Program-made: the position numbers and the translations under genes
Assembly: GCA_965221775.1 (NCBI GenBank)
Contig: CBDCSU010000004.1
Location: forward strand, 96,001 to 160,000
Reading direction: 5' to 3'
DNA from: Candidatus Latescibacterota bacterium
Lineage (GTDB): Bacteria; Latescibacterota; UBA2968; UBA8231
Length of the DNA: 64,000 nt
Shown here: positions 6,319 through 27,305 of the stretch, one piece after another
Position numbering within the stretch: position 1 is the stretch's first letter
Layout of the letters: each line of letters starts with the position of its first letter
Notes under the pieces: generated by a model
Database searches by the model: none
What the model saw: the letters and a program-made list of their open reading frames with translations, nothing else
What the model was told of the DNA's origin: nothing

Positions 6319-9300
6319 ATGTCATCCAGTTTCTCCGACACACTCCCCGGAGATTACCCCCGCCGGATCAAGAGCATCCGAGGCCTCCGGGGTCTGACGC
6401 AGACGCAGTTCGCGGAACTCGTCGGCGTCTCCTTTGCCTCCGTCAACCGCTGGGAGAACGGCCAGTCCCGTCCCAACACCCTGGCCTGGCGCCGCGTACT
6501 CGAGGTGGAAGCCCTGCCAGCAGACGGTTCGGACGAACCCTCGGCAGAGGAAACCGGGCCCCCAAGCATGGACTTCTCAGCCGATCCCGAGGCGGTCTCC
6601 GCCGTCGCCGAGGCCCATCGCCTCGCCAGCGGCCACCTCTTCAATCCCGCCTTCGCCACCGAGACCTCCCTGATCGACCCGCTTCCGCACCAGCGCATCG
6701 CCGTGTACCAGCGGATGCTTGACCAGTCCCCCCTTCGTTTTCTGCTGGCCGACGACGCCGGCGCCGGCAAGACCATCATGACCGGGCTGTACGTGCGCGA
6801 GATGCTTTCCCGCCGCCTCCTGCGGCGCGTGCTCGTCGTGCCCCCGGCCGGCTTGGTGGGCAACTGGGAGCGGGAGATGCGCACCCTCTTCCGCCTGCCC
6901 TTCCGCATCCTAGGCGGGGCCGACGCGCGCGCCGGCAACCCCTTCCTCGGACCGGAGAGCGACCTCGCCATCGTCAGCGTCGACACCCTGGCCGGGGAGC
7001 GCATGTTCGGCCACCTCGGGGATCCGCAGACCAGCCCCTACGACCTCGTTGTCTTCGACGAGGCCCACAAGCTGTCGGCAGACCGCCAGCCGGACTTCCG
7101 GGTGCGCAAGACGGGCCGCTACAAGCTGGCCGAGGCCCTGGCCGGCGCCGAGACCGACGACAAGGACGGGAGGGGGCTCTCCTGGTCGGCACAGCATCTC
7201 CTGCTGCTGACGGCCACCCCCCACATGGGCAAGGACCACCCCTACTACTATCTGTGGCGCCTGCTGCTGCCGGACGCCCTCTCCACCTACGACGCCTTCG
7301 AGGAGTTCCCCCCGGACTCGCGGCAGCGGCACTTCATCCGTCGCACCAAGGAGGAGATGGTCCACTTCGACCGTCGGCCCCTCTACCCGCAGCGCAAGTG
7401 CGACACCCTGGGCTACGAGCTGTCCCAGGGGCCGGGGAGCGAGCAGGAGCTGTACGACGAGACCACGGACTACATGCGCCATCACTACAACCGGGCGGCG
7501 GCGTTGAACCGGTCCGCCGCCCGCCTGGCGATGAGCGTCTTCCAGCGCCGCTTGGCCAGCTCCACCTATGCTCTCCTGCGCTCCTTCGAGCGCCGCCTCG
7601 AGAAGCTGGAGGGGCTCATCGACGACATCCGCAGCGGCCGCCTAACCGAGGAGCAGCTCGCGAGGCGGCAACAACAGCTCCGGCCCGACGATCTCTTCGA
7701 GACGCGCACGGCTGACGAGGAGGCGGAGATCGAAGACGGGGAACAGCACGAGGACTTCGAGGCCCGGGCCCTCGAAGGCACGGTGGCGGTCAACCTCGCC
7801 GAGCTGGAGGCGGAGCGTGTCAAGGTCGCCGGGTTGCGCGACAAGGCGCAGAGGCTCTTTGACCAAGGTGAGGAGTCGAAGTTCGAGAAGCTGAGGGAGG
7901 TCCTTGCGGCTCCGGACTACCGCGACCAGAAGCTCATCATCTTCACCGAGCACCGGGACACGGCGGGGTTCCTGGTGCGCCGACTCGAAGGCCTTGGCTA
8001 CACGGGCCACGTCGCCCTCATCCACGGCGGCCTTGCCTACCCGGAGAGGGAGCGCCAAGTCGAACTTTTCCGCCGGCCCGCGGACCAGGGCGGGGCCAGT
8101 TATCTCGTGGCCACCGACGCCGCCGGCGAGGGGATCAACCTCCAGTTCTGCTGGCTCATGGTGAACTACGACATCCCCTGGAACCCGGCCCGGCTGGAGC
8201 AGCGCATGGGGCGCATCCACCGTTACGGCCAGAAGCGGGACCCGGTGGTCATCGTCAACCTCGTCTCCGCGGGCACCCGGGAGGGCCGGGTGCTGAAGAC
8301 CCTGCTCGACAAGCTCGAGGCGATCCGACGGCAGCTCAGCTCCGACAAGGTCTTCGACGTGGTGGGCCGTCTCTTCGAGGGGCTGTCCGTCCGGGACTAC
8401 CTGGCCCAAGCGGTGATGGATGGAGCCGGCGCCGACGCCGCTGCTGAGCGGCTGGAGGGCCACCTCACGGAAGAGCAGGTCCGGGCCCTCGAGGAGAGAG
8501 AGCGCGCCATTTACGGGGACGGCGGCGAGGTGCGCGGCCGGCTGGACGATCTCAACGAGGAGATGGAGCAGGAGAACTACCGCCGGCTGCTGCCCGGGTA
8601 CGTGCGCCGTTTCGTCGAGCATGCCGCGCCGCTCCTCCACCTGCGCCTGGATGGGGATCCGGGTGGCGCCTTCTCCCTGGTGCCTGACCGGCCTCGGGCC
8701 GCCGACCCCCTGCTGTCCGCCCTGGAGGTCTACCCGGAGGAGGCGAGGGAGCGGCTGACGGTGTACAAGCCCGAGAGCCGCGACGACGCTATCTGGCTGC
8801 ATCCCGGTGAGCCGGTCTTCGACAGCCTCTCGGCCGCGGTCCGGGAGCGCCTCGGAGCCGAAGGGCTGCGCGGCGCCGTGTTCAGCGACCCCTATGCCAG
8901 CGACCCGTACCTGTTCCACATCGCCCGCGTCAGCGTGCACCAGCATACGCCGGCGGTTGACCGCGACGAGGGTGGAGAGGCGCCGCAACTGGTGGAGTCG
9001 CGGCTGGTGGGGCTGCGCCAGAGCAGAGAGGGTGCCGTGGAGGAGTGCCCCGTGGAGCACTTGCTCCTGTTGCGCGGCGCCGGCGGTATCGCCCCCGGCG
9101 GCGTGCCCCTGGCCACCTTGGCGCGGGGCATGGCCGGAGAGGCCGCCGATTTCCTTGGCGGGGAAGTGGTCGAGCAGATCGTGCAGACACACCGCCAGCG
9201 CCGCCTGGACGATCTGCCCGGCCGCCTGGAGTTCGTCAACCGCGGATTCGACTATCAGGCGGCCGAGCTGGCAGCCGCCCGGTCCCGTCTCAGGGAGAAA

Positions 9301-9939
9301 GCCGGCACCGGGGACCGTCAGTCCGCCGAGGAGTTGGCCAAGGTCAGGGAGCGGCAGCGGAGCCTCAACGCCCTGCGCGCCCACCGACTTGCCGGGCTGC
9401 GGGCCGAGCCAGAGCACATCCGGGCCGGGGAGGCCGAGTTCCTCGTGCATGCCCTGGTGGTGCCGGCCCAGGACGACAGGGAGGCGGAGCGCTACGACGC
9501 CGATGTCGAGGCCATCGCCATGGAGGTAGCCGCCGCCTACGAGAAGGAGCGGGGCGCCCAGGTGCGGGATGTCTCCAAGCCGGAGTTGGCGAGGCGGGCC
9601 GGACTGCCGGACTGGCCGGGCTTCGACCTCCTGTCCCGCGGCGAGGGAATGGAGGACCGAGCCATAGAAGTCAAGGGACGGGCCGGCACCGGCGGCGTGG
9701 AGTTGGAGGAGAACGAGTGGGCCAAGGCCTGCAACCTGAGAGAGAGATACTGGCTCTACGTGGTCTACGACTGCGCGACGGCGAGGCCGCGACTGGCGCG
9801 GGTGCGGGACCCATTCGCCAAGCTGCTGGTGAGGGAACGAGAGTCCCGTACCTTCATCATCACGGCGGGGGCGGTCATGGAGGCGTCGGAGGAGGGCAGA
9901 AAAGATGAACCGGGGTTAAAGCGGGGACAGGGTGATTGA
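6319..9939 (+). CDS. XRE-HTH + SNF2-family (SF2) helicase + C-terminal DUF3883 (PD-(D/E)xK) nuclease
   Basis: HTH LTQTQFAELVGVSFASVNRWENG; LADDAGAGKT, DEAH, LTATPH, IIFTEH, TDAAGEGINLQ, WNPARLEQRMGRIHRYGQ; C-terminal GFDLLS...IEVKG...ENEW...YWLYVV. Confidence 0.93.
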   Translation: MSSSFSDTLPGDYPRRIKSIRGLRGLTQTQFAELVGVSFASVNRWENGQSRPNTLAWRRVLEVEALPADGSDEPSAEETGPPSMDFSADPEAVSAVAEAHRLASGHLFNPAFATETSLIDPLPHQRIAVYQRMLDQSPLRFLLADDAGAGKTIMTGLYVREMLSRRLLRRVLVVPPAGLVGNWEREMRTLFRLPFRILGGADARAGNPFLGPESDLAIVSVDTLAGERMFGHLGDPQTSPYDLVVFDEAHKLSADRQPDFRVRKTGRYKLAEALAGAETDDKDGRGLSWSAQHLLLLTATPHMGKDHPYYYLWRLLLPDALSTYDAFEEFPPDSRQRHFIRRTKEEMVHFDRRPLYPQRKCDTLGYELSQGPGSEQELYDETTDYMRHHYNRAAALNRSAARLAMSVFQRRLASSTYALLRSFERRLEKLEGLIDDIRSGRLTEEQLARRQQQLRPDDLFETRTADEEAEIEDGEQHEDFEARALEGTVAVNLAELEAERVKVAGLRDKAQRLFDQGEESKFEKLREVLAAPDYRDQKLIIFTEHRDTAGFLVRRLEGLGYTGHVALIHGGLAYPERERQVELFRRPADQGGASYLVATDAAGEGINLQFCWLMVNYDIPWNPARLEQRMGRIHRYGQKRDPVVIVNLVSAGTREGRVLKTLLDKLEAIRRQLSSDKVFDVVGRLFEGLSVRDYLAQAVMDGAGADAAAERLEGHLTEEQVRALEERERAIYGDGGEVRGRLDDLNEEMEQENYRRLLPGYVRRFVEHAAPLLHLRLDGDPGGAFSLVPDRPRAADPLLSALEVYPEEARERLTVYKPESRDDAIWLHPGEPVFDSLSAAVRERLGAEGLRGAVFSDPYASDPYLFHIARVSVHQHTPAVDRDEGGEAPQLVESRLVGLRQSREGAVEECPVEHLLLLRGAGGIAPGGVPLATLARGMAGEAADFLGGEVVEQIVQTHRQRRLDDLPGRLEFVNRGFDYQAAELAAARSRLREKAGTGDRQSAEELAKVRERQRSLNALRAHRLAGLRAEPEHIRAGEAEFLVHALVVPAQDDREAERYDADVEAIAMEVAAAYEKERGAQVRDVSKPELARRAGLPDWPGFDLLSRGEGMEDRAIEVKGRAGTGGVELEENEWAKACNLRERYWLYVVYDCATARPRLARVRDPFAKLLVRERESRTFIITAGAVMEASEEGRKDEPGLKRGQGD
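9781..9897 (+). repeat. Direct repeat copy 1 (3' end of the helicase gene)
   Basis: Aligns by eye to 12026-12143 with 8 substitutions and one 1-nt indel. Confidence 0.95.
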
Positions 9940-11496
9940 GTGGACGAACGTACAATGAAGATTGGTATTGCAAGCCGATTCCTAAGGGACCTCCATGGCC
10001 TATCGCCTACGTTGAGGAAGAAGACCCTGGAGCTTATACACGAGCTTCAAGGGGTGGGGCAAACCGAGCTTAGGCAGAAGGCATTGCCGGGCTGGCGGCT
10101 CCACAGTCTCCGGGAGTCAAGTATGGTATCCCTCTCGGTAGATATGAACTTCCGGATCCTTGCTCAATTCACTCAGGGTGCTCTTATCCTCCATCGGGTA
10201 GTAAGACACGATGTGGCTGATCGTGCCACAGTGAACAGGAACGATCAAGCCGAAGCCATAGTCCAGATGAGCCCTGAAGAGATTCGTCCCGCGGATGTAT
10301 ATGATGCGTTGCTTTCCTTCGGTGTGCCCCGACATGAGGCTGAGTTCTTCCGCGAGTGCTCAACAGAAGATGACCTTCTGAACGTAGCAGTTAAGGTCTC
10401 AGAGGAAACGGCAAGTCTTGCCCTGACCCTGTACGAGACAAGCGGCCTCCCAATCCCTCAGGCTCGGTTCCGGATCCTCCAAAGAGATGAGGATCTCATG
10501 CGTCTTCTTGAGGCGGGAGGTACTGAGTGGAATCTATACCTACACCCGTCTCAAGCATACATTGTGGAACTAGAACCCTCCTTTCGAGCGGCCATCGTAG
10601 GTTCTGCCGGCACAGGTAAGACGGTTTGTGCGTGGCATCGCAGCAAGCATCTGATTGACTTGGGTGTATCGGTCGGTTTCGTTTGTCCGCACGAATCGGT
10701 GCTAGACATCTCGAAGCAGAATCTAATTGACATGATCGGACCGGAAGATGAACGGAGTTACTTCTTTGTCCCGAAGCAACCCGATGAGCTCCTACAGCTT
10801 GCTGATGCCGTTGACCATCTCATTATCGACGAGGCACAGGAGATTCCTCCGACATGGTTCTCCAACCTTGCAGCAAGAATGCGTGATACAGTTGGGCTGA
10901 CCGTGCTCTATGATCTGAATCAGCTCGGAGGTAATATCCGGGATGGCGACACCGCCCGATACCGGGACCGAATTGCCGGCTGGAAGTCAATGTTGAGCGG
11001 ATTCCCCAGAATGAGGAAGTTCAATCTGACGATCAATTATAGAAACGCACGAGAAATCGCCGAGTGTTATCTGGAACTGCTGTCAGAAGCACTGCCTGCA
11101 AAACCATTTGCTGACGTTCCCGTGTTCGAATCTGGAGAGGTTCTCCGGCATAGGGTCAAGAGTGGATACTTGGAAGACGAGCTTGCTAGTATTCTACGAA
11201 GGATGCTGGTGGACTATTCCTCTCACGAGATTGGGGTAGTTGTTCTCAACCGAGGACCGAGCAGCCTACTCTGCCACCTGTCCCGGCGCAAGCTTCCTGT
11301 CGTGCGGGATGCAAAGCAGGACGGAATTGTTATTACTACCGCGGCGAAGGTTCGCGGCCACGAACGAGAAGTGATGATTGTGATTGCGAAGAGCACCCAA
11401 GCTCTGTGTCGGAGTTTTGGCGCCGCAATCGATGCCTATATTGCGATGTCACGAGCGATAAAGCAGCTCATCGTAGTCGAGGAAGAGGGCAGATGA
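9940..11496 (+). CDS. RelE-like N-terminal domain fused to a compact SF1 (UvrD-like) helicase/ATPase
   Basis: N-terminal IASRFLRDL...WRLHSL...SLSVDMNFRIL...HD pattern; YLHPSQ, GSAGTGKT, LIIDEAQE, YDLNQ, LTINYRN, VRGHER, YIAMSRA; visibly lower GC; GTG start directly after the helicase stop. Confidence 0.75.
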   Translation: MDERTMKIGIASRFLRDLHGLSPTLRKKTLELIHELQGVGQTELRQKALPGWRLHSLRESSMVSLSVDMNFRILAQFTQGALILHRVVRHDVADRATVNRNDQAEAIVQMSPEEIRPADVYDALLSFGVPRHEAEFFRECSTEDDLLNVAVKVSEETASLALTLYETSGLPIPQARFRILQRDEDLMRLLEAGGTEWNLYLHPSQAYIVELEPSFRAAIVGSAGTGKTVCAWHRSKHLIDLGVSVGFVCPHESVLDISKQNLIDMIGPEDERSYFFVPKQPDELLQLADAVDHLIIDEAQEIPPTWFSNLAARMRDTVGLTVLYDLNQLGGNIRDGDTARYRDRIAGWKSMLSGFPRMRKFNLTINYRNAREIAECYLELLSEALPAKPFADVPVFESGEVLRHRVKSGYLEDELASILRRMLVDYSSHEIGVVVLNRGPSSLLCHLSRRKLPVVRDAKQDGIVITTAAKVRGHEREVMIVIAKSTQALCRSFGAAIDAYIAMSRAIKQLIVVEEEGR

Positions 11497-11900
11497 GGGA
11501 CTTCCGTCAACTGGTTGTGCAGCGTCCGCCAGACCAATCCGATATAGAGAACCTTCTGCGGAAGGGAGCACTTGGCAAGGCACTTCGACAGGCAAGAGCC
11601 ACGGGTTTGATCATTCCTCAAGAAGACATTGAGGCCACGGCAATCGAGATGTTCAATTCCAACCGTGCGGGCGAGTTATTGGCCATGGTTGGTAAAGTAG
11701 ATGTAGACCTGCCATTTGACACGAGCCAACTGCTTCTACGTGTCTTTGAAGCAGGAGACTACCATACGTTTCTGAAACAGGTGCATCGTTTGGGTGTCGG
11801 AGCGAATGAGGAGCTCAGGGTCACGGAAGCTATCGCAGTAGTTGAACGAACTGCTCCCCTGGAAGCACGGTCCTGGAGACGGAAGTTCCGTACAGTGTGA
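11493..11900 (+). CDS. Hypothetical alpha-helical protein (135 aa)
   Basis: ATG 11493 overlaps the upstream TGA (ATGA); same low-GC composition; no recognisable motif. Confidence 0.7.
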   Translation: MRDFRQLVVQRPPDQSDIENLLRKGALGKALRQARATGLIIPQEDIEATAIEMFNSNRAGELLAMVGKVDVDLPFDTSQLLLRVFEAGDYHTFLKQVHRLGVGANEELRVTEAIAVVERTAPLEARSWRRKFRTV

Positions 11901-12025
11901 AGCATGCGGCGTTGGTGAGAGGGAGATGTCTTAGGCAATGCTGCTGTCTCTGCATCGACCACTTGGACTTAGGAATTGGATCGTAGGTCTTGATCTGAGA
12001 CTATTGGAGATCGCACGATGCTGAA

Positions 12026-12143
12026 GCGAGGCAGCGACTGGCGCGGGTGCGGGACCCCTTCGCCAAGCTGCTGATGAAGGGAACGAGAGTCCCTTACCCT
12101 CACCATCACGGCGGGGGCGGTCATGCAGGCGGCGGAGGAGGGC
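12026..12143 (+). pseudogene. Direct repeat copy 2: remnant 3' end of a second helicase allele
   Basis: About 92% identical to 9781-9897. In the helicase frame it ends AGAVMQAAEEGPGS-stop, with TGA 12153-12155 overlapping ATG 12152. Confidence 0.88.
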
Positions 12144-12151
12144 CCAGGGTC

Positions 12152-13759
12152 ATGACGACGACTGGCATCCGTTTCTTCAACACCGCGGGACCGATCGTGG
12201 CGGCGGATCACTACCATGTGCCGCCGCTGGAGCGGCTGGACCGCGACGAGGTGCTGATGCTGATCCGTCAGCAGAAGTACTTCGTGCTGCACGCTCCCCG
12301 GCAGACAGGCAAGACCTCGGCCCTGCTGGCGCTGAGAGATCTGCTCAATAGCGGTGTCGCCGGCGAGTACCGCTGCGTCTACGTCAACGTCGAGGCGGGC
12401 CAAGCGGCGCGCGAGGATGTCGCAACGGCGATGCGGGCAATCCTCAGCGCCCTCGCCCGTGCGGCGCGTCAAACCCTCGATGACCAGTTCGTCGCTGACG
12501 CCTGGCCTGGCATCTTCGAGGGCTCCGGCCCCAACGATGCCCTTGGGGAAACCCTGTCCCGCTGGGCCGAGTCGGACCCCCAGCCGCTGGTGCTGCTGAT
12601 CGACGAGATCGACGCCCTGATCGGCGACAGCCTGCTGGCGGTGCTGCGGCAGTTGCGCGCCGGGTATGCAGACCGCCCACGGCGGTTTCCGCAGAGCGTG
12701 GTCCTTGGCGGGGTGCGGGACGTGCGCGACTACCGCATCCGCTCTTCCGCCGAGAACGCCGTCATCGCCGGGGGCAGCGCCTTCAACATCCGGGCCGAGT
12801 CCCTGCGCCTGGGGGGCTTCTCCCGCGAGGAGGTGGAGTCGCTGCTGGGGCAGCATACCGAGGAGACCGGGCAGGCCTTCACGGAGGAGGCGCGCGCGGC
12901 GGTCTGGGAACTGACCGAGGGCCAGCCGTGGCTGGTGAACGCCCTGGCCTACGAAGCCTGCTTCCGCAACAAGGCCGGCCGCGACCGGGGCCAGGAGGTG
13001 ACCGCCGAGGCCATCCAGGATGCGCGCGAGCAGTTGATCCTGCGCCGGGAAACGCACCTGGACCAGCTCACCGACAAGCTCCGGGAGGAGCGGGTGCGCC
13101 GGGTGATCGAGCCGCTGCTGAGAGGCGCCGACGACGCCGGTCCCATCGCTGCCGACGACTTGGAATACGTACGCGACCTCGGCCTGGTTGCCCGCGACAG
13201 CCCGGTCCGCATCGCCAACCCGATCTACCGCGAGGTGATCCCCCGCGATCTGACGTTCACGACCCAGGCGGGTTTCCATCACGACCCGTCCTGGTACGTG
13301 GACGAGGGCGGGGCCCTGGAGGTGGACAAGCTGCTGGCCGCGTTCCAGGAGTTCTTCCGGGAGCACTCCGAGCACTGGGTGGAGCGCTTCCAGTACAAGG
13401 AGGCGGGTCCGCAGTTGCTGCTTCAGGCCTTCCTTCAGCGCATCCTCAACAGCGGCGGCCGCATCGAGCGCGAGTACGGCCTGGGGCGCCTGCGCACCGA
13501 TCTGCTGCTGGTGTGGCCGCTGCCGGGAGATGCGGGCGGGGTGCAGAAGGCGGTCGTCGAGTGCAAGGTGCTGCACCGGGGCCTGGAGCGGACCCTGCGC
13601 GAAGGGCTGGAGCAGACACGGGCCTACATGGACCGCTGCGGGTCGGCGGAGGGGCACCTGGTGATCTTCGACCGCACCGAGGGCAAGTCGTGGGAGGAGA
13701 AGGTGTACCGCCGCGACGAGACCGGGGGCGGCGCCCCGGTCACAGCGTGGGGGATGTGA
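12152..13759 (+). CDS. AAA-like ATPase with C-terminal PD-(D/E)xK nuclease domain
   Basis: RFFNTAGP start, APRQTGKTS, LLIDEID, SAFNI, GQPWLVN, IEREYGLGRLRTDL...VVECK; GGAGG RBS. Confidence 0.9.
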   Translation: MTTTGIRFFNTAGPIVAADHYHVPPLERLDRDEVLMLIRQQKYFVLHAPRQTGKTSALLALRDLLNSGVAGEYRCVYVNVEAGQAAREDVATAMRAILSALARAARQTLDDQFVADAWPGIFEGSGPNDALGETLSRWAESDPQPLVLLIDEIDALIGDSLLAVLRQLRAGYADRPRRFPQSVVLGGVRDVRDYRIRSSAENAVIAGGSAFNIRAESLRLGGFSREEVESLLGQHTEETGQAFTEEARAAVWELTEGQPWLVNALAYEACFRNKAGRDRGQEVTAEAIQDAREQLILRRETHLDQLTDKLREERVRRVIEPLLRGADDAGPIAADDLEYVRDLGLVARDSPVRIANPIYREVIPRDLTFTTQAGFHHDPSWYVDEGGALEVDKLLAAFQEFFREHSEHWVERFQYKEAGPQLLLQAFLQRILNSGGRIEREYGLGRLRTDLLLVWPLPGDAGGVQKAVVECKVLHRGLERTLREGLEQTRAYMDRCGSAEGHLVIFDRTEGKSWEEKVYRRDETGGGAPVTAWGM

Positions 13760-13771
13760 ACGCACAGGAAG

Positions 13772-15552: not shown

Positions 15553-15576
15553 TCCTCTGCGGATGAACGGCCCACC

Positions 15577-16836: not shown

Positions 16837-17068
16837 CAAGGAGGAGTTCGCCCGGCGTGGTCAGGCGATCTACGAGCAGCGAGTGAGGCCGCAGGTGGAA
16901 GAAGGCAACAGCGGTCGCGTCGTGGCGATTGACATTGAGACCGGCGAGTTCGAGGTGGGGGACGATCCCTTGGCCGCCTCCGACCAACTGTTCGCGCGCT
17001 GTCCAGATGCGCAGCCGTGGCTGATCCGGATCGGCCACCGTGCGCTACACCGGCTCGGCGCATCATGA
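16814..17068 (+). CDS. Small DUF5678-like protein (usual partner of clan AA aspartic proteases)
   Basis: SKEEFARRGQAIYE...VVAIDIETGEFEV...RIGH pattern. Confidence 0.72.
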   Translation: MERQPRHSKEEFARRGQAIYEQRVRPQVEEGNSGRVVAIDIETGEFEVGDDPLAASDQLFARCPDAQPWLIRIGHRALHRLGAS

Positions 17069-17085
17069 TCGAGGGTGCAGTTTCA
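17065..17085 (+). pseudogene. Stub (MIEGAVS) of a probable clan AA aspartic protease gene
   Basis: ATGA overlap with the upstream gene and an MIxGxV start typical of that family; the frame closes after 14 codons inside the CBASS start region. Confidence 0.45.
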
Positions 17086-17096
17086 GAAAGGAAACG

Positions 17097-18682: not shown

Positions 18683-18689
18683 GGAAGAC

Positions 18690-21600
18690 ATGACCGACAA
18701 ACGGCTCATCGAGGCCGCCTTCCCCCTCAAGCAGGTCTCCCTCGACTCCGTGCACGAGAAGAACGTGCGCCACGGCCATATCTCCACCCTGCACATCTGG
18801 CCCGCGCGGAGACCGCTGGCGGCCTGCCGGGCGGCCCTGATCGCGACGCTCCTCCCCGACCCCGGCAATGCGCGTGAGCGCAAGGAGATCCTGGAGCGCA
18901 TGGCCGGCCGCCTCATCCGGAGGCCCGAGCGCAAGCGGGTGAACGGCCGCGTGGTCGAGCGGGTGAAGGAGGAGACGAGAGGCGGCATCCTCCACTGGGG
19001 GCGGGAGAGCGGCCAGGACCTGGAGTGGTTCCGCGCCGAGATCCGCAAGGCGTACGGTGGGAAGGCGCCCAAGGTGCTGGATCCCTTCGCCGGCGGCGGC
19101 GCCATTCCCCTCGAAGCGATGCGCCTCGGGTGCGAGGTGACGGCCATGGACATCAACCCGGTGGCCTGGTTCATCCTCAAGTGCACCCTCGAGTACCCGC
19201 AGAAGCTCGCCGGCCAGACCCGGCCGCTGCCCGGGTTCGCGCTGCAGGACCGGGAGTTCATGGAGGCCTTCCTGAAGTCGAAAGGCTTCAGGGGCGCCCG
19301 GTTGCGGAGTCTGCTTGACCGCATCGGACACGGCGACGGTGGCGGCGTCCAACTCGACGCTTTGCCGGGCGATGTCCCGGTCACCGAGGCGGACCTCGCC
19401 TGGCACGTGCGCGCCTGGGGCCGGTGGGTGCTGTCGAGGGCGCGCAGGGAGCTGGCTTCCTGCTACCCGAGCTATGCCGGGTTCGAGCCCCTGAAGCCGG
19501 GTCGGGATTTCGAGGCCCGACCGATCCGGCTGCTCGACGTCGATGAAGACGGGGCGCCCCAGGTGGAGCCCTTCAATGCCGGATTCGACAAGGACTATCT
19601 GAAGGACCCGCTCAACCCGCGCTGGATCGCCAAGCCGGCGGTGGCCTATCTCTGGGCGCGGACCGTGACCTGCAAGCAGTGTCGGGCGGAGCTGCCGCTG
19701 CTCAAGACCCGCTGGCTATGCAAGAAGGACCGGAAGCGGGTGCTGCTGACCATGGAGCCCAAGGCGGACGGAACCGGCGTCGTCTTCGGTGTGCTGGGCG
19801 ACGTTGCGCAGAACGGCGGCAACGGGGCCCAGAGGCGGGAGCACGACCGGCGTCTCGGTGGGGGCACCATGTCGCGCACCGGCGCAGCCTGTCCCTGCTG
19901 CGGGGCGATCACGACCATGGAGGACATCCGTCTGGAAGGCCGCGCGGGTCGGCTGGGCGCGGTGATGACGGCCGTGGTCGTGGATGGGCTCAAGGGGAAG
20001 GAATACCGCCTGCCCACGGACCACGAGCGGGCGATGGCGGAGGTGACCGAGGACCGGCTGCAGGCACTCTACGCGGAGATTCCCTTCGGGCTGCCGGAGG
20101 AGCAGACTCCCAAGGCGGGCATCGGGGCGTCGCGGGCTTTCTCGGTGGATGGCTATGGCTTCGACACTTGGCGGAAGCTGTTCACGAATCGGCAGCTGCT
20201 GGCGCTTGGAGAGTTCGTCCGGACGCTTCGAACCCTGATGCAAGAACTCGACGACTGCTCGGAGGGTTGGCGCGAAGCGGTGATTGCGAATCTCGGCCTC
20301 GTCAACGACCGGCTGGCCGACTACTCCAGCGCGGTTTGCTCTTGGCACAACAGTGGGGAGAAGCTCAGAAACACCTTTGGGCGCTTTGCTCTGCCTATCG
20401 TCTGGGACTTTACCGAAGTCAATCCGCTATCAGAAACCTCGGGCAATTATCGCGGTGCACTTGATTGGGTCAGCAAGGCCTGCGAGCACCTCCAGAGAAG
20501 TGTCGATGGTGCCCGTAGCGGGGAGAGCATCCGTGGGTCCGCCATAGTCTGTCCGATCGACAGTTTCGATGTGATTCTCACCGACCCACCGTACTACGAC
20601 GCCATCCCCTACTCTGACCTGATGGACTTCTTCCATGTGTGGCTGAGGCGCACGGTTCCCGGACTGTCCGCCGAAGTCGAGTCTGCCTTCTCCGGGCCCC
20701 TCGGCCCCAAGTGGGACCACGAGAGCGGCGACGGCGAGCTCATAGACGACGCGGGCCGGTTCGGCGGCGACAAGGAGTGTTCCAAGCAGAGCTACGAAGA
20801 CGGCATGGCCCGCTCTTTCCGTTCCTGTCATGCTGCCCTGCAGCCGGACGGGCGGCTCGTGGTCGTCTTCGCCAACAAGCATCCCGATGCCTGGGAGACC
20901 CTGGTCGCTGCCCTGATCCGGGCCGGTTTCGTCGTCGACGGCTCCTGGCCCATCCAGACCGAGATGGGCACCAGGACTCGCGCCATGGCCTCCGCAGCCC
21001 TGTCATCTTCCGTCTGGATCGTCTGCAAGAAAAGGTCCGCCACGGGCTCCGGCTGGGACACCAGGGTCCTCGAGGAGATGCGCGTGAACATCACTCAACA
21101 GTTGCGAGACTTCTGGGACGCCGGCATCCGCGGTCCCGACTTCGTCTGGGCGGCCACCGGACCGGCCCTCGAAGCCTTCAGCAAGTACCCCGTGGTCAAG
21201 AAGGCCAACGCCCCGGGCGAGCAGATGTCCGTGGCGGAGTTCCTGCGCCAGGTGAGGCGCATGGTCGTGGATTTCGTCGTGGGCCGGGTGCTGATCCAGG
21301 ACGGCGCGGCAGAGCAGGCCGAGGAACGGGAGGCTGAGACCGGCCTCGACGACGTCACCACCTACTACCTGCTGCACCGCCACGACTTCGGCCTGGACGA
21401 AGCTCCGGTGGGCGGCTGCATCCTCTACGCCCTCTCCTGCAACCTGTCGGATTCCGCACTGGTCAACCAGCATGACCTTCTCGCCCAGGCGGGCAGGAGG
21501 GCAGCGGGTGAGGAAGCCGAGGAGGAGGGGGACGAGCCGGAAGAGCCAGAGGAGAAGGGCGGCGGCGCCAAGGTGAAGCTGAAGCCCTGGCATCGGAGGA

Positions 21601-21947
21601 AGGGCCGCAACCTCGGCCTGGAAGGGCAGGGAGGAAGGCCTGCGCCGCTCATCGACCAGGTGCACAAGCTCATGCACCTCTGGCGCGCCGGGGACCAGGT
21701 CAAGGTCAACGACTACCTCGACAGCCGCGGCCTGCCCCGAAATGCCCTGTTCAACCAGATCCTCCAGGCCCTCATCGAGCTGGCCGACGAAGGCTCGGAG
21801 GAGCGGGCACTGCTGGAATCGGTGAGCAACCACGCGGCCGGGCGGGGCGGGGTTCAAGCGCCGCGGCAGAGGCGGTTTCAGTTCGGAGAAGCCGGTCGTC
21901 GACCGGAGCCTGCCCAAGATGAGGCTCGACCTCGATATGCGAGGTGA
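18690..21947 (+). CDS. DUF1156-containing adenine-specific DNA methyltransferase
   Basis: KRLIE...LHIWPARRPLAACRA, DPFAGGGAIPLEA, CKQC/CPCC zinc ligands, TDPPYYD, SWPIQTE; GAGGA RBS. Confidence 0.93.
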   Translation: MTDKRLIEAAFPLKQVSLDSVHEKNVRHGHISTLHIWPARRPLAACRAALIATLLPDPGNARERKEILERMAGRLIRRPERKRVNGRVVERVKEETRGGILHWGRESGQDLEWFRAEIRKAYGGKAPKVLDPFAGGGAIPLEAMRLGCEVTAMDINPVAWFILKCTLEYPQKLAGQTRPLPGFALQDREFMEAFLKSKGFRGARLRSLLDRIGHGDGGGVQLDALPGDVPVTEADLAWHVRAWGRWVLSRARRELASCYPSYAGFEPLKPGRDFEARPIRLLDVDEDGAPQVEPFNAGFDKDYLKDPLNPRWIAKPAVAYLWARTVTCKQCRAELPLLKTRWLCKKDRKRVLLTMEPKADGTGVVFGVLGDVAQNGGNGAQRREHDRRLGGGTMSRTGAACPCCGAITTMEDIRLEGRAGRLGAVMTAVVVDGLKGKEYRLPTDHERAMAEVTEDRLQALYAEIPFGLPEEQTPKAGIGASRAFSVDGYGFDTWRKLFTNRQLLALGEFVRTLRTLMQELDDCSEGWREAVIANLGLVNDRLADYSSAVCSWHNSGEKLRNTFGRFALPIVWDFTEVNPLSETSGNYRGALDWVSKACEHLQRSVDGARSGESIRGSAIVCPIDSFDVILTDPPYYDAIPYSDLMDFFHVWLRRTVPGLSAEVESAFSGPLGPKWDHESGDGELIDDAGRFGGDKECSKQSYEDGMARSFRSCHAALQPDGRLVVVFANKHPDAWETLVAALIRAGFVVDGSWPIQTEMGTRTRAMASAALSSSVWIVCKKRSATGSGWDTRVLEEMRVNITQQLRDFWDAGIRGPDFVWAATGPALEAFSKYPVVKKANAPGEQMSVAEFLRQVRRMVVDFVVGRVLIQDGAAEQAEEREAETGLDDVTTYYLLHRHDFGLDEAPVGGCILYALSCNLSDSALVNQHDLLAQAGRRAAGEEAEEEGDEPEEPEEKGGGAKVKLKPWHRRKGRNLGLEGQGGRPAPLIDQVHKLMHLWRAGDQVKVNDYLDSRGLPRNALFNQILQALIELADEGSEERALLESVSNHAAGRGGVQAPRQRRFQFGEAGRRPEPAQDEARPRYAR

Positions 21948-21965
21948 AAGGGCGATAGGCCATCC

Positions 21966-23951
21966 ATGAGCGCGATTCTTCAGATCAACCTGGACGATCT
22001 CCTCCATTGCCGCGGCGTAGAGTCGGAACGGGTCGAGTTCAAGGAGTCCTGGGATTCGCACAGGACCGCCCCCCAAGTGCTGCAGACGATCTGCGCCTTC
22101 GCGAACGACTATCACAATCTGAACGGCGGATACGTCGTCATCGGCGTCGGTGAGCGGGACGGAAGTGCAGTGCTGCCGCCATCCGGATTGTCCGCAGCGG
22201 AGATCGAGGCCGCGCAGCGGTGGATTCGCGGCCACTGCCAACAACTCGACCCGACCTATCAGCCCATCCTCTCTCCCGAGACGGTCGAGGAGCGGCTTGT
22301 CCTGGTGGTGTGGGCACCGGGAAGCGAGATGAGACCTCATCGCGCGCCCTCCTCCAGAGGCGAGTCACCCCGGTACTGGGTTCGTCTCGGTTCAGAGACC
22401 GTTGATGCCGAACAACGCGGCGACCTGCTCCGGGGACTTATTCAGCAGACGGCCCGGGTGCCTTGGGACGATCGCCGGACGCCGGATGCTCAGGTCGATG
22501 ATCTGCGAGAGGCCAAGGTCCGCGAGTATCTGCGCGACGTGGGGAGTGGGCTCCTCAACGAGCCGAATGAGAGGGAAGTCTATCGCCGCATGCGGATCAC
22601 GATGAAGGTCAATGACCACGAGGCGCCCCGGAACGCAGGTCTTCTTTTCTTTTCTAGAGAGCCCGTAGAGTGGTTCCGAGGTGCCAGGATCGAAGTTGTG
22701 CACTTCACCGCGGATCGGGCTGGTGACGTTCAGGAGGAACGCACTTTCGGGGGAGGGCTCGCGGACCAGCTGCGGGACTGCCTGAACTATCTTCAGAATC
22801 TCTCGACCTTCCATGTGCAGAAGCAGGGAGATCGCAGCCAGGTGCGCGGCTGGGTCAGCTATCCGCTGCCGGCGTTGCGCGAGACCCTCGTCAACGCGAT
22901 CTATCACCGTGGTTACGATGTGGATCAGCCCGAGCCCACCAAGGTCTATCTCTATCCGAGCCGGGTCGAGGTGATCAGCTACCCCGGTCCTGTGCCGGGA
23001 ATCGAGCCTCGCCACTTGGTCCCGGACGCGGAGGTTCGGGCCGCGCCCGCTCGCAATCGCCGCATCGGCGAGTTCCTGAAAGAGCTGGGACTCGCGGAAG
23101 GACGCCTCACCGGGCTGCCAAGAGTGTTTCGGGCGATGAAGGACAACGGATCGCCGGTACCGCGCTTCGACTTTGACGAGCAGCGGACCTGGTTTCAAGC
23201 CACTCTGCCCGCTCACCCGGAGTACGCGGCGCTGTCCGCGTTGCGGGACACGGCTCACCTGCGGGCACTGGGAGAGCACGAGGAGGCCCTTCGCCGTATC
23301 GAATCAGCGTGGGCGTCGAACCCCGAGTCGGCGATCCTTGCCGCGGAGATGATTCGTTCGTACGCGGCACAGGGTGAGACCGGACGTGCCGAAGAGGTCT
23401 TGGAAGCGTTCGAGGCGAAGGGACCGCCGAGCGCTGCCGCCCACGTGGCCAATACGTTGATAGAGGCGCTGATGGAAGCCGGAGAGAGTGAGAAGGCGCG
23501 GCGCCTGCTCAAAGAAAACCGGGCGGAACTGTTCGGGCAGGACGCCATCGACGCGGCCATCCTCGCCAGGCGCGCGAAGAACTCCCAAGTCGCGCACCGG
23601 TACTTCGAGCGCGCCGCAGACGCCGTGTATGCCGACCCACGCGCGCTTCTCGAGTTTGCTCAGACCAAGATCTGGTTGGCGGGCGAGGCCCGCAGGCGGC
23701 GGCAACCGGACTCGCGGCGCCGGTTCCTCACGGAGGCCCGCGCGCTTCTGGAGCGTGTGCTTCAGCTGGAGGCCTCGCCGACCCGCCACGCCTGGGCATG
23801 GCGGGAGCTGGCGCGCACGCTCAACTGGCTGGGGGCTCCAGTTCGAGAAATCGAGGAGGCTTGGCAAAAGGCGATCGATCGGATGCCCGAAGAGAGTAGA
23901 TTCGTCGGAGAGAGGGACAATATGCGGGCGTCCAGGCGGCAGGAAACCTGA
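21966..23951 (+). CDS. Schlafen/AlbA_2 domain + HATPase_c_4 + C-terminal TPR-like helices
   Basis: ESERVEFKESW, ICAFAN...GGYVVIGV, YPLPALRETLVNAIYHRGY, RNRRIGEFLKELGLAEG; Ala/Glu/Arg-rich helical C-terminal third. Confidence 0.85.
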   Translation: MSAILQINLDDLLHCRGVESERVEFKESWDSHRTAPQVLQTICAFANDYHNLNGGYVVIGVGERDGSAVLPPSGLSAAEIEAAQRWIRGHCQQLDPTYQPILSPETVEERLVLVVWAPGSEMRPHRAPSSRGESPRYWVRLGSETVDAEQRGDLLRGLIQQTARVPWDDRRTPDAQVDDLREAKVREYLRDVGSGLLNEPNEREVYRRMRITMKVNDHEAPRNAGLLFFSREPVEWFRGARIEVVHFTADRAGDVQEERTFGGGLADQLRDCLNYLQNLSTFHVQKQGDRSQVRGWVSYPLPALRETLVNAIYHRGYDVDQPEPTKVYLYPSRVEVISYPGPVPGIEPRHLVPDAEVRAAPARNRRIGEFLKELGLAEGRLTGLPRVFRAMKDNGSPVPRFDFDEQRTWFQATLPAHPEYAALSALRDTAHLRALGEHEEALRRIESAWASNPESAILAAEMIRSYAAQGETGRAEEVLEAFEAKGPPSAAAHVANTLIEALMEAGESEKARRLLKENRAELFGQDAIDAAILARRAKNSQVAHRYFERAADAVYADPRALLEFAQTKIWLAGEARRRRQPDSRRRFLTEARALLERVLQLEASPTRHAWAWRELARTLNWLGAPVREIEEAWQKAIDRMPEESRFVGERDNMRASRRQET

Positions 23952-23987: not shown

Positions 23988-26900
23988 ATGACAACCAGGA
24001 CATCCCGGAAACCCTGGCACGAGGTCGTGCAACTGCGCGACGATCTGAAGACGGGAGAGCTGTCCCTCGCGGTCTTCGCCGCCGACCTCTACGACGTGGT
24101 GATGCAGAAGGGCCAGCGGCCGGTGTACGAGCAGCCCGCCGAGTTCTTCGCCCTCACCTTTCCCACCCTGAACCTGCGGGAGTTGGTCAAGGATGTCTGC
24201 CACCGGCTCGCCGGCCGCAGCGACAAGGCGTACCGGAAGCTCTCCGTCAACTACGGCGGCGGCAAGACCCACACGCTCATCGCCCTCAGGCACCTGGTCC
24301 ACGACCCGGCGGCGCTTCCCCCCCTGCCGGCGGTGCAGGAGTTCGAGGCCCACATCGGCTTCAGGCCTCCACAGTCCCGGGTGGCCGCCCTCTGTTTCGA
24401 CAAGATCGACCTGGACAAGGGCGTCGAGACTCCGGGGCCGGACGGCGAGATCAGGATGCTCAGGCACCCGTGGAGCATCCTCGCCTTTCAGTTGGCGGGC
24501 CCCGATGGCCTGCGGCTCATCCACGCCGAGGGCGAGGACACGGAGCGCGATACTCCGCCGGCGGAGCCGCTGGTGGTGGAGCTGCTGTCCCGGCCGCAGA
24601 GGGACGGTCTCTCGACGCTGGTGTTGCTCGACGAGGTGCTGATGTATCTGCGGGTCCTGGCTGAGACCTCCTCCGAGTCACGTGGCCGTCTGTTGAGCTT
24701 CTTCCAGTACCTCACGCAGGCTGTGGTCAAGGTGGACCGCTGCGCCATGGTGGCCTCACTCCTCGCCTCCGACCCGAGAAGGCACGACGACCTCGGCAAC
24801 GAACTGCTGCGCGACGTCTCCGAGATCATCGTTCGGCAGGGGGAGGAGGGTGCCTACCCGGTGGGCAAGGAAGACGTGGCCGAGGTCCTGCGGCGCCGCT
24901 TCTTCACGCCCGAGTCGATTCGCGACCAGAACGCCTTCCGTCCTCACGTGACTTCCGCCGTGGGCAGCATCGCCGGTCTCGATGAGCAGACCGGAAGAGA
25001 GCGTGCCAGCGCCGAGGAGCGCTACCTCAACAGCTACCCCTTCCACCCGGATCTCACCGAGATCTTCTACAACCGCTGGACCCAGCTCGACGGCTTCCAG
25101 CGCACCCGCGGCATCCTCCGCACCTTCGCCATCGCCCTGCGCGACGCCTCCGAGTGGGACACCAGCCCGCTGGTGGGGCCGGGCGTCTTTCTGCGCGCCC
25201 CTGGGAAGGATGGCTTGGCCGAAGCGGCGGGCGACCTCGCTTCCTCTGCCAGCGTCGATTCCGATACCGGTCAGCCCCAGCAGTGGCGGCCGATCCTCGA
25301 AGGCGAGCTGGAGAAGGCGCGCACCATTCAGGACGAGTCGGCCGGCCTGGCACACCGGGAGGTGGAGCAAGCCGTGGTCTCCGTCTTCCTGTCCTCGCAG
25401 CCTATCGGCCACAAGGCGCAGTCCGGGGAGCTCATGGTCCTGCTCGGAGCGGGCCACCCGGACAGGATCGAGCTGGAGAAGGCCCTGCGGCGTTGGACGG
25501 AACAGTCCTGGTTCCTGGACGAGGCGGAGATCGCCACGGGCCAAACCGGCCAGGAGGGGGAACTGCCCAGGGCCTGGCGACTGGGCAACCGCCCCAACCT
25601 GCGCCAGATGCACCACGATGCCTGCAGCAACCGGGTGCCCCCATCACTGGTGGAGTCGCAGATCATCGACGCCATCGACAAGGAGAGGGCCCTCACTTCG
25701 GGCGCCTCCGCGGCCGGCGCCAAGGTGCACAACCTGCCGGAGAGACCGAGCGACATCGGTGATGACGGTGACTTCCACTACGCGGTCCTCGGGCCGCAGG
25801 CCGCCTCCGAGTCCGGCAAGCCGAGCACCCTGTCCAGGCGTTTCCTCGACGAGACCACTTCCAGGGACCGGCCCCGGGTCTACCGCAACGCAGTCGTACT
25901 CGCCGTGCCTTCCCGCGATGGTCTCGACGCGCTGCGCACCCGTGTCCGGGAGTACCTCGGCTGGGTGGAAGTTGGCGACCAGCTCAGTGGTCAGCCCATC
26001 GATCCGCTCCGGGAGCAGATGCTCGCAAGCGAGAGGGATTCGGCGAGGAAGCGAATTCCAGACGCTGTGCGGCAGGCGTACTCCGTCGTCGTCACCGTTG
26101 ACGAGAGCGACGCCGTTCACGCCTTCAAGGTCGTCGTCACCGGGGACCCTCTGTTCACGATCATCAAGGCGGACCAACGGGCCCGCATCCAGGAAACGGC
26201 TGTCAGCTCGGAGGCCATGTTGCCGGAGGGGCCCTACGACCTGTGGCGCGAGGGGGAGGACTCCCGCCGCGTAAAGGACTTGGTGGGCGCCTTCGCGCAG
26301 TTCCCCAAGCTGCCCAAGATGTTGCGGCCCAAAGAGGTTCTGGACACGGTGGTGGACGGGGTCCGGCAAGGGACCTGGGTGGCGCGGCTGGTGCGACCGG
26401 ACCGCACCGTCAGGACCTTCTGGCGCACGGAGGTCGACGAGGCGGCCCTGCAGGACCCGGCCCTGGAGGTGCTGCTGCCGCAGGCCGCCGAGTTGAGCGA
26501 CCTCGCCCCGGACCTGCTGGCGCACGAGAAGCTCCCGGGGCTCTGGTCGGGGGATGAGATCAGTGTGCAGGAGGTCTTCGACTACTTCGCCGGCGGACAC
26601 ACCGTGAGCTTGCCGCGGGAGGGGTACGACGAGATTCTGGTCATCCCGAAATGCGAGCCGGCTCATCTGGAATCGGCCATCTCGCAGGCCGTCGAGCAGG
26701 GGCAGGTGTGGTTGACGAGCGGGCCCGCCTCGATCCTCGACGAACCGGTGCCGGCGGGAGTCCTGAGCGCTGCCGCGAAGCTCAGGCCGCGGCCGGGACA
26801 GATCGAGGTTCCCGAGTTGATGGCCGTGTCGATCCCCGACGCCTGGAAGGATGGCAAGACCAACGCCCTTGCCCTTGCGACCGGCCTCTCCACGAAGCGA

Positions 26901-27305
26901 GGCGTCAGTCTTCCTTGGACCACGGTGCGATCGGCCATCGGGTCGGCCATCCGGGCGCGGTGGATCGAGTTGACAAAGGACAGCCCCGAATGGCCGTGCG
27001 ACTTTGCTGGCGCCCAGCACGTGATCTTTCAGGTCCCTGTCGACGAGGCTCGCGAGAAGGAGAAACCCCTCTACGGGTCGGGGAGCGGGTCCGGGTCTTC
27101 GCCATGTGCCGAGGCGGTTCTTGAGGCCGACCAGATCCAGGACTTGGCCGAACAAGTGCCGGAGCTGCTAAAGGCGGCCGTTGGAAGTGAGCTCAGGTTT
27201 ACGGTCCGCATTGAGGTGGGAGGAGCGGCCGCCCCCAGCCCGGAGGCGGTGCAGAAGATCAAAGATCTGCTTGCCGTGGTGTCGGAGAACCTGCGGCTTG
27301 ACTAG
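23988..27305 (+). CDS. DUF499 family AAA+ ATPase
   Basis: KPWHEVVQLRDD, FAADL, FFALTFPT, YGGGKTHTL, LLDE, EVLRRRFF, YPFHP, FQRTRGILR, YRNAVV. Confidence 0.92.
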   Translation: MTTRTSRKPWHEVVQLRDDLKTGELSLAVFAADLYDVVMQKGQRPVYEQPAEFFALTFPTLNLRELVKDVCHRLAGRSDKAYRKLSVNYGGGKTHTLIALRHLVHDPAALPPLPAVQEFEAHIGFRPPQSRVAALCFDKIDLDKGVETPGPDGEIRMLRHPWSILAFQLAGPDGLRLIHAEGEDTERDTPPAEPLVVELLSRPQRDGLSTLVLLDEVLMYLRVLAETSSESRGRLLSFFQYLTQAVVKVDRCAMVASLLASDPRRHDDLGNELLRDVSEIIVRQGEEGAYPVGKEDVAEVLRRRFFTPESIRDQNAFRPHVTSAVGSIAGLDEQTGRERASAEERYLNSYPFHPDLTEIFYNRWTQLDGFQRTRGILRTFAIALRDASEWDTSPLVGPGVFLRAPGKDGLAEAAGDLASSASVDSDTGQPQQWRPILEGELEKARTIQDESAGLAHREVEQAVVSVFLSSQPIGHKAQSGELMVLLGAGHPDRIELEKALRRWTEQSWFLDEAEIATGQTGQEGELPRAWRLGNRPNLRQMHHDACSNRVPPSLVESQIIDAIDKERALTSGASAAGAKVHNLPERPSDIGDDGDFHYAVLGPQAASESGKPSTLSRRFLDETTSRDRPRVYRNAVVLAVPSRDGLDALRTRVREYLGWVEVGDQLSGQPIDPLREQMLASERDSARKRIPDAVRQAYSVVVTVDESDAVHAFKVVVTGDPLFTIIKADQRARIQETAVSSEAMLPEGPYDLWREGEDSRRVKDLVGAFAQFPKLPKMLRPKEVLDTVVDGVRQGTWVARLVRPDRTVRTFWRTEVDEAALQDPALEVLLPQAAELSDLAPDLLAHEKLPGLWSGDEISVQEVFDYFAGGHTVSLPREGYDEILVIPKCEPAHLESAISQAVEQGQVWLTSGPASILDEPVPAGVLSAAAKLRPRPGQIEVPELMAVSIPDAWKDGKTNALALATGLSTKRGVSLPWTTVRSAIGSAIRARWIELTKDSPEWPCDFAGAQHVIFQVPVDEAREKEKPLYGSGSGSGSSPCAEAVLEADQIQDLAEQVPELLKAAVGSELRFTVRIEVGGAAAPSPEAVQKIKDLLAVVSENLRLD

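Follow-up and report, generated by a model that had tools for sequence, protein, structure and literature searches.

The three-gene operon Hma, made up of a helicase-nuclease gene (hmaA), a DUF1156 methylase gene (hmaB) and a DUF499 ATPase gene (hmaC), was named with 1,638 instances in 26 phyla (Payne 2021, PMC8565338). It has since been renamed Type-1 DUF499-centred BREX-related (Type-1 BR), a relative bearing DUF3780 and HKD becoming Type-2, and a mechanism resembling restriction-modification (RM) has been proposed for it (NAR 2026, PMC12839542). HmaA from Halomonas protects E. coli from T4, for which its nickase domain is required; in the same study insertions were found in about 66.5% of hma loci, and the region was termed an insertion hotspot (Liu 2024, PMC11232893). 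A census allowing at most three genes per slot found embedded genes in 931 of 1,485 Hma systems (62.7%); 22.8% of the embedded genes belonged to known defence systems and 96.7% were co-oriented (Payne 2024, bioRxiv 10.1101/2024.01.29.577857). This preprint put forward 'guilt-by-embedding'; of nine candidates embedded in Hma, seven were validated, and 145 PDC models were released. The word 'recombination' is absent from its main text. Here we describe an Hma locus at positions 6319-27305 of a 64,000-nucleotide (nt) stretch of DNA, hereafter the window, from Candidatus Latescibacterota bacterium (assembly GCA_965221775.1, contig CBDCSU010000004.1, positions 96,001 to 160,000 of the forward strand).

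What does this locus add to the published picture? An earlier note on the same DNA had taken it for a little-characterised immunity system whose operon is a hotspot for nested defence genes, had likened the nesting to that of PrrC and had suggested mining the slots between the core genes. The system was in fact already named in PMC8565338 and renamed in PMC12839542, while hotspot, PrrC analogy and slot mining were correctly inferred, yet already published (bioRxiv 10.1101/2024.01.29.577857; PMC11232893). As both the system and its nesting role are in print, the locus adds an example, not a principle. Very probably, it is an Hma locus that carries cargo in both inter-core slots and behind hmaC, as gene-sized modules built up stepwise by recombination between Hma loci.

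Core genes and system assignment

The three core genes share the plus strand in a single locus, at the positions that the earlier note had given for them (Table 1). In PADLOC, the hmaA product is best matched by HmaA (1.2e-163, residues 84-1150), while the products of hmaB and hmaC match HmaB (5.8e-119) and HmaC (5.1e-70). HmaA displays the motifs DAGAGKT, FDEAHK and D..EVK, its C-terminal NOV_C domain being of the PD-(D/E)xK nuclease type (Pfam); in HmaB a large insert separates motifs I and IV; and in HmaC both Walker A and Walker B motifs are present. Among proteins of solved structure, the one closest to HmaA in sequence is RapA (4.6e-22); sequence searches for solved relatives of HmaB and HmaC returned none, and no HEPN domain was detected in HmaC. 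The three-component make-up of helicase-nuclease, DUF1156 methylase and DUF499 ATPase, as recognised in the earlier note, is confirmed by Pfam and PADLOC.

Relatives of HmaB number in the thousands, and the best of them are 75-89% identical to it. From 279 relatives found in species-representative genomes we kept the best 80 matches, corresponding to 75 loci with 10-kb flanks (numbered with the prefix L below). Of the 75, 70 have the 3' end of hmaA upstream on the strand of hmaB, and 67 have the start of hmaC downstream; with both neighbours inside the fetched flanks, 63 loci keep A>B>C on a single strand, the same helicase-first order that the earlier note had described for the window. Because the Hma models score far above the Gao_RL-type models, the catalytic motifs are intact and this order is kept in the relatives, the locus is, as judged from its genes, an Hma system, alias Type-1 BR. 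With the Hma operons of Payne 2021 it has in common the three domain architectures, among them a DUF1156 methylase of N6 type with a nested insert, the gene order, the shared strand and the embedded defence genes. It differs in an extra ~80 amino acids (aa) at the N-terminus of HmaA, forming an XRE-type helix-turn-helix (HTH), in its uncultured Latescibacterota-type host, and in the nine open reading frames (ORFs) of one slot, as against the published limit of three. With nine ORFs between hmaA and hmaB it falls outside that census rule, which is a rule of detection and not a biological criterion.

Could the core instead belong to another helicase-methylase family, namely Gao_RL (Type-2 BR), type 3 BREX or DISARM? 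These are relatives of the Hma core (NAR 2026, PMC12839542), and PADLOC does return weaker matches to DrmD (1.1e-96), BrxHI/HII (3.7e-90), DUF1156_MTase (3.4e-35) and DUF499 (3.1e-13). However, a Pfam scan of the 16 proteins encoded at 6319-33972 found no DUF3780, PLD/HKD, PglZ, BrxA/B/L or DrmA/B/C domain, in line with the earlier note, which had seen no DUF3780, PglZ or BrxA/B; the Gao_RL-type PADLOC models, reaching 3.7e-25, 3.4e-35 and 3.1e-13, stay far behind those of Hma; and every NCBIfam equivalog scores well under its cut-off. We regard such an assignment as hardly credible. The likeness to Gao_RL drawn in the earlier note stands for the proteins, as DUF1156 methylase, DUF499 ATPase and SNF2 helicase are homologous, but not for the identity of the system: Gao_RL has DUF3780 and a helicase-fused HKD/PLD nuclease, where the present helicase has a C-terminal PD-(D/E)xK domain instead. 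No gene for DUF3780 occurs among the 16 proteins, and the NCBIfam scores fall short of their cut-offs for phospholipD_antiphage (143.7 against 1100 bits), DUF1156_antiphage (162.9 against 1000) and DUF499_antiphage (74.7 against 1200). For BREX types 1-6, neither PglZ, BrxA/BrxB/BrxL nor type-specific partners were found at the locus with Pfam and PADLOC. For DISARM there is just a DrmD-like helicase core (327.9 bits against a cut-off of 610), and Pfam detected no DUF1998 or PLD gene.

The N-terminal HTH of HmaA occupies residues 1-80 (window 6319-6560; HTH_3, 1.1e-11) and lies outside the PADLOC model. The description of HmaA in NAR 2026 (PMC12839542) gives a TUDOR domain as its N-terminal element and leaves an HTH unmentioned. 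Coverage of tblastn matches from residue 1 onwards suggests that some relatives have the HTH, while others begin near residue 82; it could serve in autoregulation of the operon.

Both HmaB and HmaC contain hypervariable stretches. Mean identity drops to 0.43-0.60 at residues ~495-615 of HmaB (window ~20170-20535) and to 0.33 at residues 1001-1040 of HmaC, against ~0.70 overall, and nucleotide alignments of hmaB to L055, L045 and L015 break at 20197-20567. These stretches fit two features described in NAR 2026 (PMC12839542), namely the target-recognition insert nested in the methylase and, in the DUF499 protein, a variable C-terminal domain.

Layout of the locus

Positions 6319-29185 are an unbroken chain of co-oriented plus-strand ORFs, which runs past the end of hmaC at 27305 into three further genes of low GC content (27460-29185). 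The interval between hmaA and hmaB (the A-B slot; 9940-18689, 8750 bp) contains nine ORFs in the same orientation, one of which has 84 aa (16814-17068) and the other eight 160 aa or more, whereas a single gene, with an SLFN_AlbA_2 domain in Pfam, fills the 2040 bp between hmaB and hmaC (the B-C slot). The earlier note had counted nine cargo genes over about 8.7 kb, had placed a Schlafen-type gene between hmaB and hmaC, had described core and cargo as co-oriented and had called the GC of the core host-like; all of this was borne out, the core genes having a GC of 0.67-0.69 against 0.69 in the rest of the window. That of the cargo is mixed: 0.53 in g2/g3, 0.52 in CBASS and 0.48-0.53 in d1-d3 (names as in Table 1), 0.59-0.65 in the others, and a host-like 0.69 at 12152-13759.

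Intergenic gaps inside the span measure from -91 to +36 nt, with several overlaps of 1-4 nt, which fits tight packing and, in places, coupling. Consensus promoter and terminator scans gave counts not above those of shuffled controls and are uninformative on operon structure. The start of the ORF called at 12047 was corrected to the ATG at 12152, the part upstream being a frameshifted 3' fragment of hmaA; the likely true starts of g2, the cyclase and Cap15 are 9955, 17098 and 18026.

Cargo variability among related loci

All 75 loci are from metagenome-assembled genomes, of Latescibacterota, Chloroflexota, Binatota, Poribacteria, Spirochaetota, Acidobacteriota and Gemmatimonadota. Many of these lineages, and flanks rich in ankyrin, WD40 and NHL repeats, are typical of marine-sponge symbionts. 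The gap between hmaA and hmaB ranges from 44 to 8989 bp (median 4150) and exceeds 1 kb in 68 of 70 cases; that between hmaB and hmaC ranges from 8 to 9915 bp (median 2319) and exceeds 300 bp in 61 of 67. In every one of the 63 complete loci one slot or more is filled, and in 56 both are. Tested for invariance among the relatives, the inter-core content proved variable, with 62 different cargo architectures in the 63 complete loci, and the hotspot claim of the earlier note holds. Of 418 embedded ORFs with 100 aa or more, 380 (91%) are co-oriented; a locus has up to 14 such ORFs, with a median of six, and the window, which has nine of them, is in the upper range without being extreme, since 13 of the 63 loci have nine or more.

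ABC ATPases are the commonest cargo: 49 of 76 loci, counting the window along with the 75 relatives, carry 82 of them in total. The relatives also carry short prokaryotic Argonautes (pAgo) with TIR- or SIR2-APAZ, long pAgo with a Cas4-like nuclease, NsnA/C, HEC-01, Avs2, type II RM, CBASS, PDC-S32, PDC-S15, GmrSD, OLD-TOPRIM, MNT/HEPN, a reverse transcriptase and a few transposases. The position behind hmaC is a third cargo slot, occupied by g4 or other genes in other loci.

The flanks of L019 match those of the window: upstream, 4.2 kb are 92.3% identical in nucleotide sequence, and downstream, 1 kb is 95% identical, while the hma genes are just 83-87% identical. Its cargo differs: only an orthologue of g7 with a 193-aa partner in the A-B slot, three ABC-ATPase modules in the B-C slot, and nothing behind hmaC. 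Window and L019 together display cargo turnover at one chromosomal site.

In a tree of 66 HmaB sequences the relatives form a very shallow clade of 64-86% amino acid identity from 7 phyla. The phylum label changes 11 times on this tree, against a minimum of 6, and Latescibacterota fall into at least 7 groups; the pattern fits repeated transfer across phyla.

Mosaic structure and assembly scars

The cassettes of the window are each common to different relatives: g2/g3 to L018 only, the PDC-M07 pair to L055 and L045, and d1-d3 to L001 only. Positions 6979-12030 are collinear with 1-5065 of L018, which then enters g7 directly. In the window, the 13-nt duplicate of the g7 start with its L018-like leader is followed instead by scar A' (Table 1), and the switch from L018-like sequence to the end of hmaA takes place at a shared GCGAG, a 5-nt microhomology. 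Direct repeats, blastn, alignment and translation all identify scar A', in which an insertion of 1 nt breaks the frame, and its stop overlaps the start of g4 (TCATGA), as does that of the intact hmaA in L001. In the simplest reading of these sequences, the A-B slot would be the product of one illegitimate join between a locus of L018 type (A-g2-g3-g7) and one of L055/L045 type (A-g4-M07A-M07B-g7).

A further scar, the remnant of an aspartyl-protease gene, ends where the homology blocks of CBASS begin (17094-17100). A search for repeats at the other cassette edges, which might have served as integron-like sites, found just the duplicates of the hmaA end and the g7 start, and the remaining homology blocks end at ORF boundaries. 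In L055, g7 is internally deleted. L018 and L045 are two full Hma loci with different cargo on one chromosome (OZ244619.1), so that both arrangements can coexist in one cell.

Cargo modules

Table 1. Genes, candidate modules and scars of the Hma locus (coordinates in the window)
Feature	Position	Strand	Description
hmaA	6319-9939	+	1206 aa; HTH_3, SNF2-rel_dom, Helicase_C, C-terminal NOV_C (Pfam); predicted effector
g2	9955-11496	+	~513 aa; SF1 (superfamily 1) helicase, Schlafen-group-3/UvrD type; low-GC cassette with g3
g3	11406-11900	+	164 aa; accompanies g2
Scar, g7-start duplicate	12018-12030	+	13 nt identical to 15577-15589; preceded by L018-like g7 leader
Scar A'	12031-12155	+	Copy of the final ~125 nt of hmaA, non-functional; 92-93% identity with 9781-9897
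g4	12152-13759	+	535 aa; ORC/Cdc6-like AAA+ ATPase; AAA_35/AAA_22 (Pfam)
PDC-M07 candidate system	13772-15552	+	ABC ATPase (13772-15058) and 164-aa partner (15058-15552)
g7	15577-16836	+	ABC ATPase (AAA_21), HEC-01A/MAD3-like; PADLOC HEC-01A 4.1e-55
f13	16814-17068	+	84 aa; 93-94% nucleotide identity to L001, L018 and L055
Scar, protease remnant	16999-17088	+	First 36 codons of L018-type aspartyl-protease gene; tblastn 67% over 36 aa
CBASS	17098-18682	+	Minimal type I: CD-NTase cyclase (17098-18029), Cap15-like two-transmembrane effector (18026-18682)
hmaB	18690-21947	+	1085 aa; DUF1156 9.1e-19 (Pfam), FAGGG at 133, DPPY at 632; predicted self-marking enzyme
Schlafen/AlbA_2 gene	21966-23951	+	661 aa; SLFN_AlbA_2, HATPase_c_4, TPR/PPR-like tail (Pfam); sole B-C cargo
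hmaC	23988-27305	+	1105 aa; DUF499 1e-17 (Pfam), GGGKT, LVLLDE; ORC/Cdc6-like AAA+ ATPase; predicted sensor or scaffold
d1-d3	27460-29185	+	Three overlapping low-GC ORFs of 171, 143 and 260 aa, behind hmaC

Only CBASS and PDC-M07 look like complete modules. The CBASS pair is recognised by PADLOC (cyclase 1.4e-112, two-transmembrane effector 3.2e-54) and by Cap15_CD_rec in Pfam, and the cyclase has the motif GS..DSDVD; as in type I, a CD-NTase is joined by one effector, with no Cap2/Cap3 or HORMA/TRIP13 ancillary genes adjacent. The pair is shared with 5 loci, in all of which it adjoins the 5' side of hmaB. In L053, an IS4/5-type transposase (DDE_Tnp_1, DUF4096; 8385-9191) splits the cyclase from the Cap15 effector. 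The genes of the PDC-M07 pair (PADLOC: PDC-M07A 3.1e-100, PDC-M07B 1.5e-34) are adjacent and overlap by 1 nt.

In g7, the last ~46 aa are replaced from a break at ~16746 onwards, and the identical junction occurs in L018. Orthologues of g7 are present in 19 loci, and a gene for a 193-aa partner, itself matched by no PADLOC model, in 10; as this usual partner is missing from the window, g7 is probably an orphan. It does not make up an HEC-01 system either, the A-like ATPase being present with no TOPRIM/DUF4276-type B gene next to it. The small f13 was found by blastn in 18 loci, elsewhere usually followed by a gene for a retropepsin-like aspartyl protease; low-stringency Pfam, PHROGs and PADLOC gave it no family match. 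Its nucleotide identity to the L001, L018 and L055 copies is higher than that of the hma genes. Pairs of a small ORF (84-120 aa) and a retropepsin-like protease of 125-150 aa (gag-asp_proteas, 2.5e-7) recur in Hma slots, often directly after hmaA, as at 6373-7015 in L018 and 6555-6935 in L045; 22 loci have the L045-type protease and 6 have the L018-type.

The g2 protein, which carries the Walker A motif GSAGTGKT, belongs to a family of 189 proteins of ~512-517 aa and matches AAA_19 and SLFN-g3_helicase weakly in Pfam. In Foldseek, its AlphaFold2 (AF2) model (predicted local distance difference test, pLDDT, 81.9) is closest to the helicase part of human SLFN11/SLFN14 and to UvrD; for the ~100-aa alpha+beta domain at its N-terminus, a ParE_like match at E=0.11 and one precomputed homologue label are a lead only. 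L018 has a 78% identical copy of g2, followed by a 76% identical copy of g3, which found no match in Pfam (low stringency included), PADLOC, NCBIfam or PHROGs. The product of g4 has an Atlas score of 1.00 to clusters of ~525-aa AAA_35 proteins, a widespread family, and matched no PADLOC model; by tblastn, g4 recurs in 14 related loci, where it immediately follows either hmaA or hmaC.

The Schlafen/AlbA_2 protein, whose C-terminus is PPR-like, matches PHROG 12156 at 4e-35. No full copy of its gene was found among the 75 related loci, while L070 has a shorter Schlafen analogue in its B-C slot. In its A-B slot, between g4 and M07A, L055 retains remains of both the 5' and the 3' end of the gene, so that there the gene formerly occupied this other slot. 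Among the genes behind hmaC, d1 and d3 have no family match in Pfam (low stringency included), PADLOC, NCBIfam or PHROGs, and d2 has weak TPR matches at most. The counterparts of d1-d3 in L001, the closest relative, lie at 21290-22961; the d3 family has 103 detectable members, and its AF2 model (pLDDT 80.5) matched no fold in the PDB.

Compared with the Hma-embedded and PDC systems of Payne 2024, the locus shares the PDC-M07 pair, the dominance of ABC ATPases and the co-orientation of cargo and core. It differs in a HEC-01A-like ATPase lacking its HEC-01B/TOPRIM partner, and in that g2/g3, g4, the Schlafen-TPR protein, f13 and d1-d3 match no model of PADLOC-DB v2.0.0.

Upstream, the locus is flanked by genes for a lactonase and an ankyrin-repeat protein; downstream follow an ABC transporter, a Rieske protein and an amidohydrolase, then metabolic genes and WD40/NHL repeat proteins. 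The ankyrin-repeat gene (4267-6234, GC 0.75) adjoins the 5' side of hmaA. It is missing in L019, whose flank is collinear otherwise but has nothing that corresponds to window 4360-6006. Rfam detected no RNA family in 5000-31000 and ARAGORN no tRNA across the whole window; a tRNA-linked island signature is lacking. Neither an integrase nor a transposase was detected when proteins of the window were scanned with Pfam.

Discussion

How might such a locus work? From the protein families and the papers cited, HmaB would mark host DNA with an amino-methyl group; HmaC, as an ORC/Cdc6-like ATPase, may assemble on DNA or scan it as an ATP-dependent sensor or scaffold; and HmaA would translocate on unmarked DNA and nick it via its C-terminal PD-(D/E)xK domain. 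CBASS would work independently, a cyclic-nucleotide signal acting on the membrane effector, and the remaining cargo modules would be independent candidate defences in the same co-oriented chain of genes. The cargo may have been assembled by recombination between Hma loci, for which the conserved core genes would provide the shared flanks. An L018-like left part (A-g2-g3-start of g7) would have been joined at the 5-nt microhomology with a right part of L055/L045 type (end of A-g4-M07A-M07B-g7), and in a later step the CBASS block, travelling with hmaB, would have replaced the genes 3' of f13.

Several points weigh against this picture. Halomonas HmaA gave defence by itself, hmaB and hmaC are missing from 15-19% of hmaA neighbourhoods, and T4 from an HmaB-overexpressing host was unchanged in infectivity (PMC11232893). 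With HmaA sufficient and HmaB without effect on T4, the methylation-based step of telling self from non-self is a model, not a result. HmaB was, moreover, termed an m5C methylase in Payne 2021 (PMC8565338), whereas its DPPY motif points to an amino-methyltransferase. The proposed history of recombination was reconstructed from a single junction, and the same product could result from a different order of events. The comparison itself draws on the best matches among a larger set of relatives, in which ORFs were called by a heuristic of our own; at least one of the resulting families, f19, is the opposite-strand shadow of a real gene. Finally, decayed and partnerless cargo fits a neutral 'genomic sink' as well as a selected back-up defence. 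The 'back-up abortive-infection effectors' of the earlier note are conjectural: among the cargo, the CBASS pair alone is recognised as an abortive-infection module, and several of the others are orphans or fragments.

If the slots were such a sink, insertions would simply be tolerated and would hitch-hike when the locus is transferred, so that embedding had no adaptive meaning, a hypothesis stated in Payne 2024 (bioRxiv 10.1101/2024.01.29.577857). The scars in the slot, with the frameshifted fragment, the internally deleted g7 and the Schlafen remnants in L055, and the transposase genes in some slots speak for it; yet the strongly biased orientation of the embedded ORFs (91%), their very short spacers and a cargo that is overwhelmingly of defence type rather than random genes suggest selection for co-expression of defence cargo, and we consider a purely neutral origin rather unlikely. 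At the other extreme, in line with the back-up model of the earlier note, cargo and core could be functionally wired in the manner of PrrC and EcoprrI, the cargo effectors being held inactive by Hma and firing once a phage disables it. This analogy, raised in Payne 2024 (bioRxiv 10.1101/2024.01.29.577857), has some appeal: the genes all point one way with little space between them, and in places a stop codon overlaps the next start codon; g4 starts on the hmaA stop codon or directly follows hmaC in 14 loci; and ABC ATPases, the class of PrrC, are the commonest cargo. In both cases an ABC-ATPase-type effector gene is nested in an RM operon. PrrC, however, is physically regulated by the type I RM system EcoprrI, while the cargo here is highly interchangeable: the same cassettes stand in either slot, behind hmaC or beside quite different neighbours, and 62 architectures in 63 loci argue against specific protein-protein wiring. 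Besides, CBASS, pAgo and Avs2 work alone elsewhere, and orphans and fragments persist in the slot, which makes such wiring distinctly improbable.

The reading of independent, gene-sized modules gathered stepwise by recombination between Hma loci invites a generalisation, which we offer tentatively, as possible rather than probable. The Hma core genes would act as portable homology arms of an integrase-free 'defence integron', in which cassettes are shuffled by homologous and microhomology-mediated recombination between Hma loci, paralogous as well as foreign; the assemblage would circulate in at least seven phyla, for the most part in uncultured lineages, and the scars in the window would record one fusion, of two locus types that are still found together in one related genome.

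What the locus adds is modest: assembly scars, a third cargo position behind hmaC, recurrent cargo that is covered by no model, and a very shallow Hma clade that crosses phyla. The recurrent slot candidates for which PADLOC has no model are g2/g3, g4, the Schlafen-TPR protein, d1-d3 and the pair of small ORF and retropepsin-like protease. The junction scars offer checkable evidence on how cargo accumulates, a point left open in the published work cited here. Heavily loaded Hma loci occur in bulk in uncultured lineages, and a census with a ceiling of three genes per slot would count too few of them.

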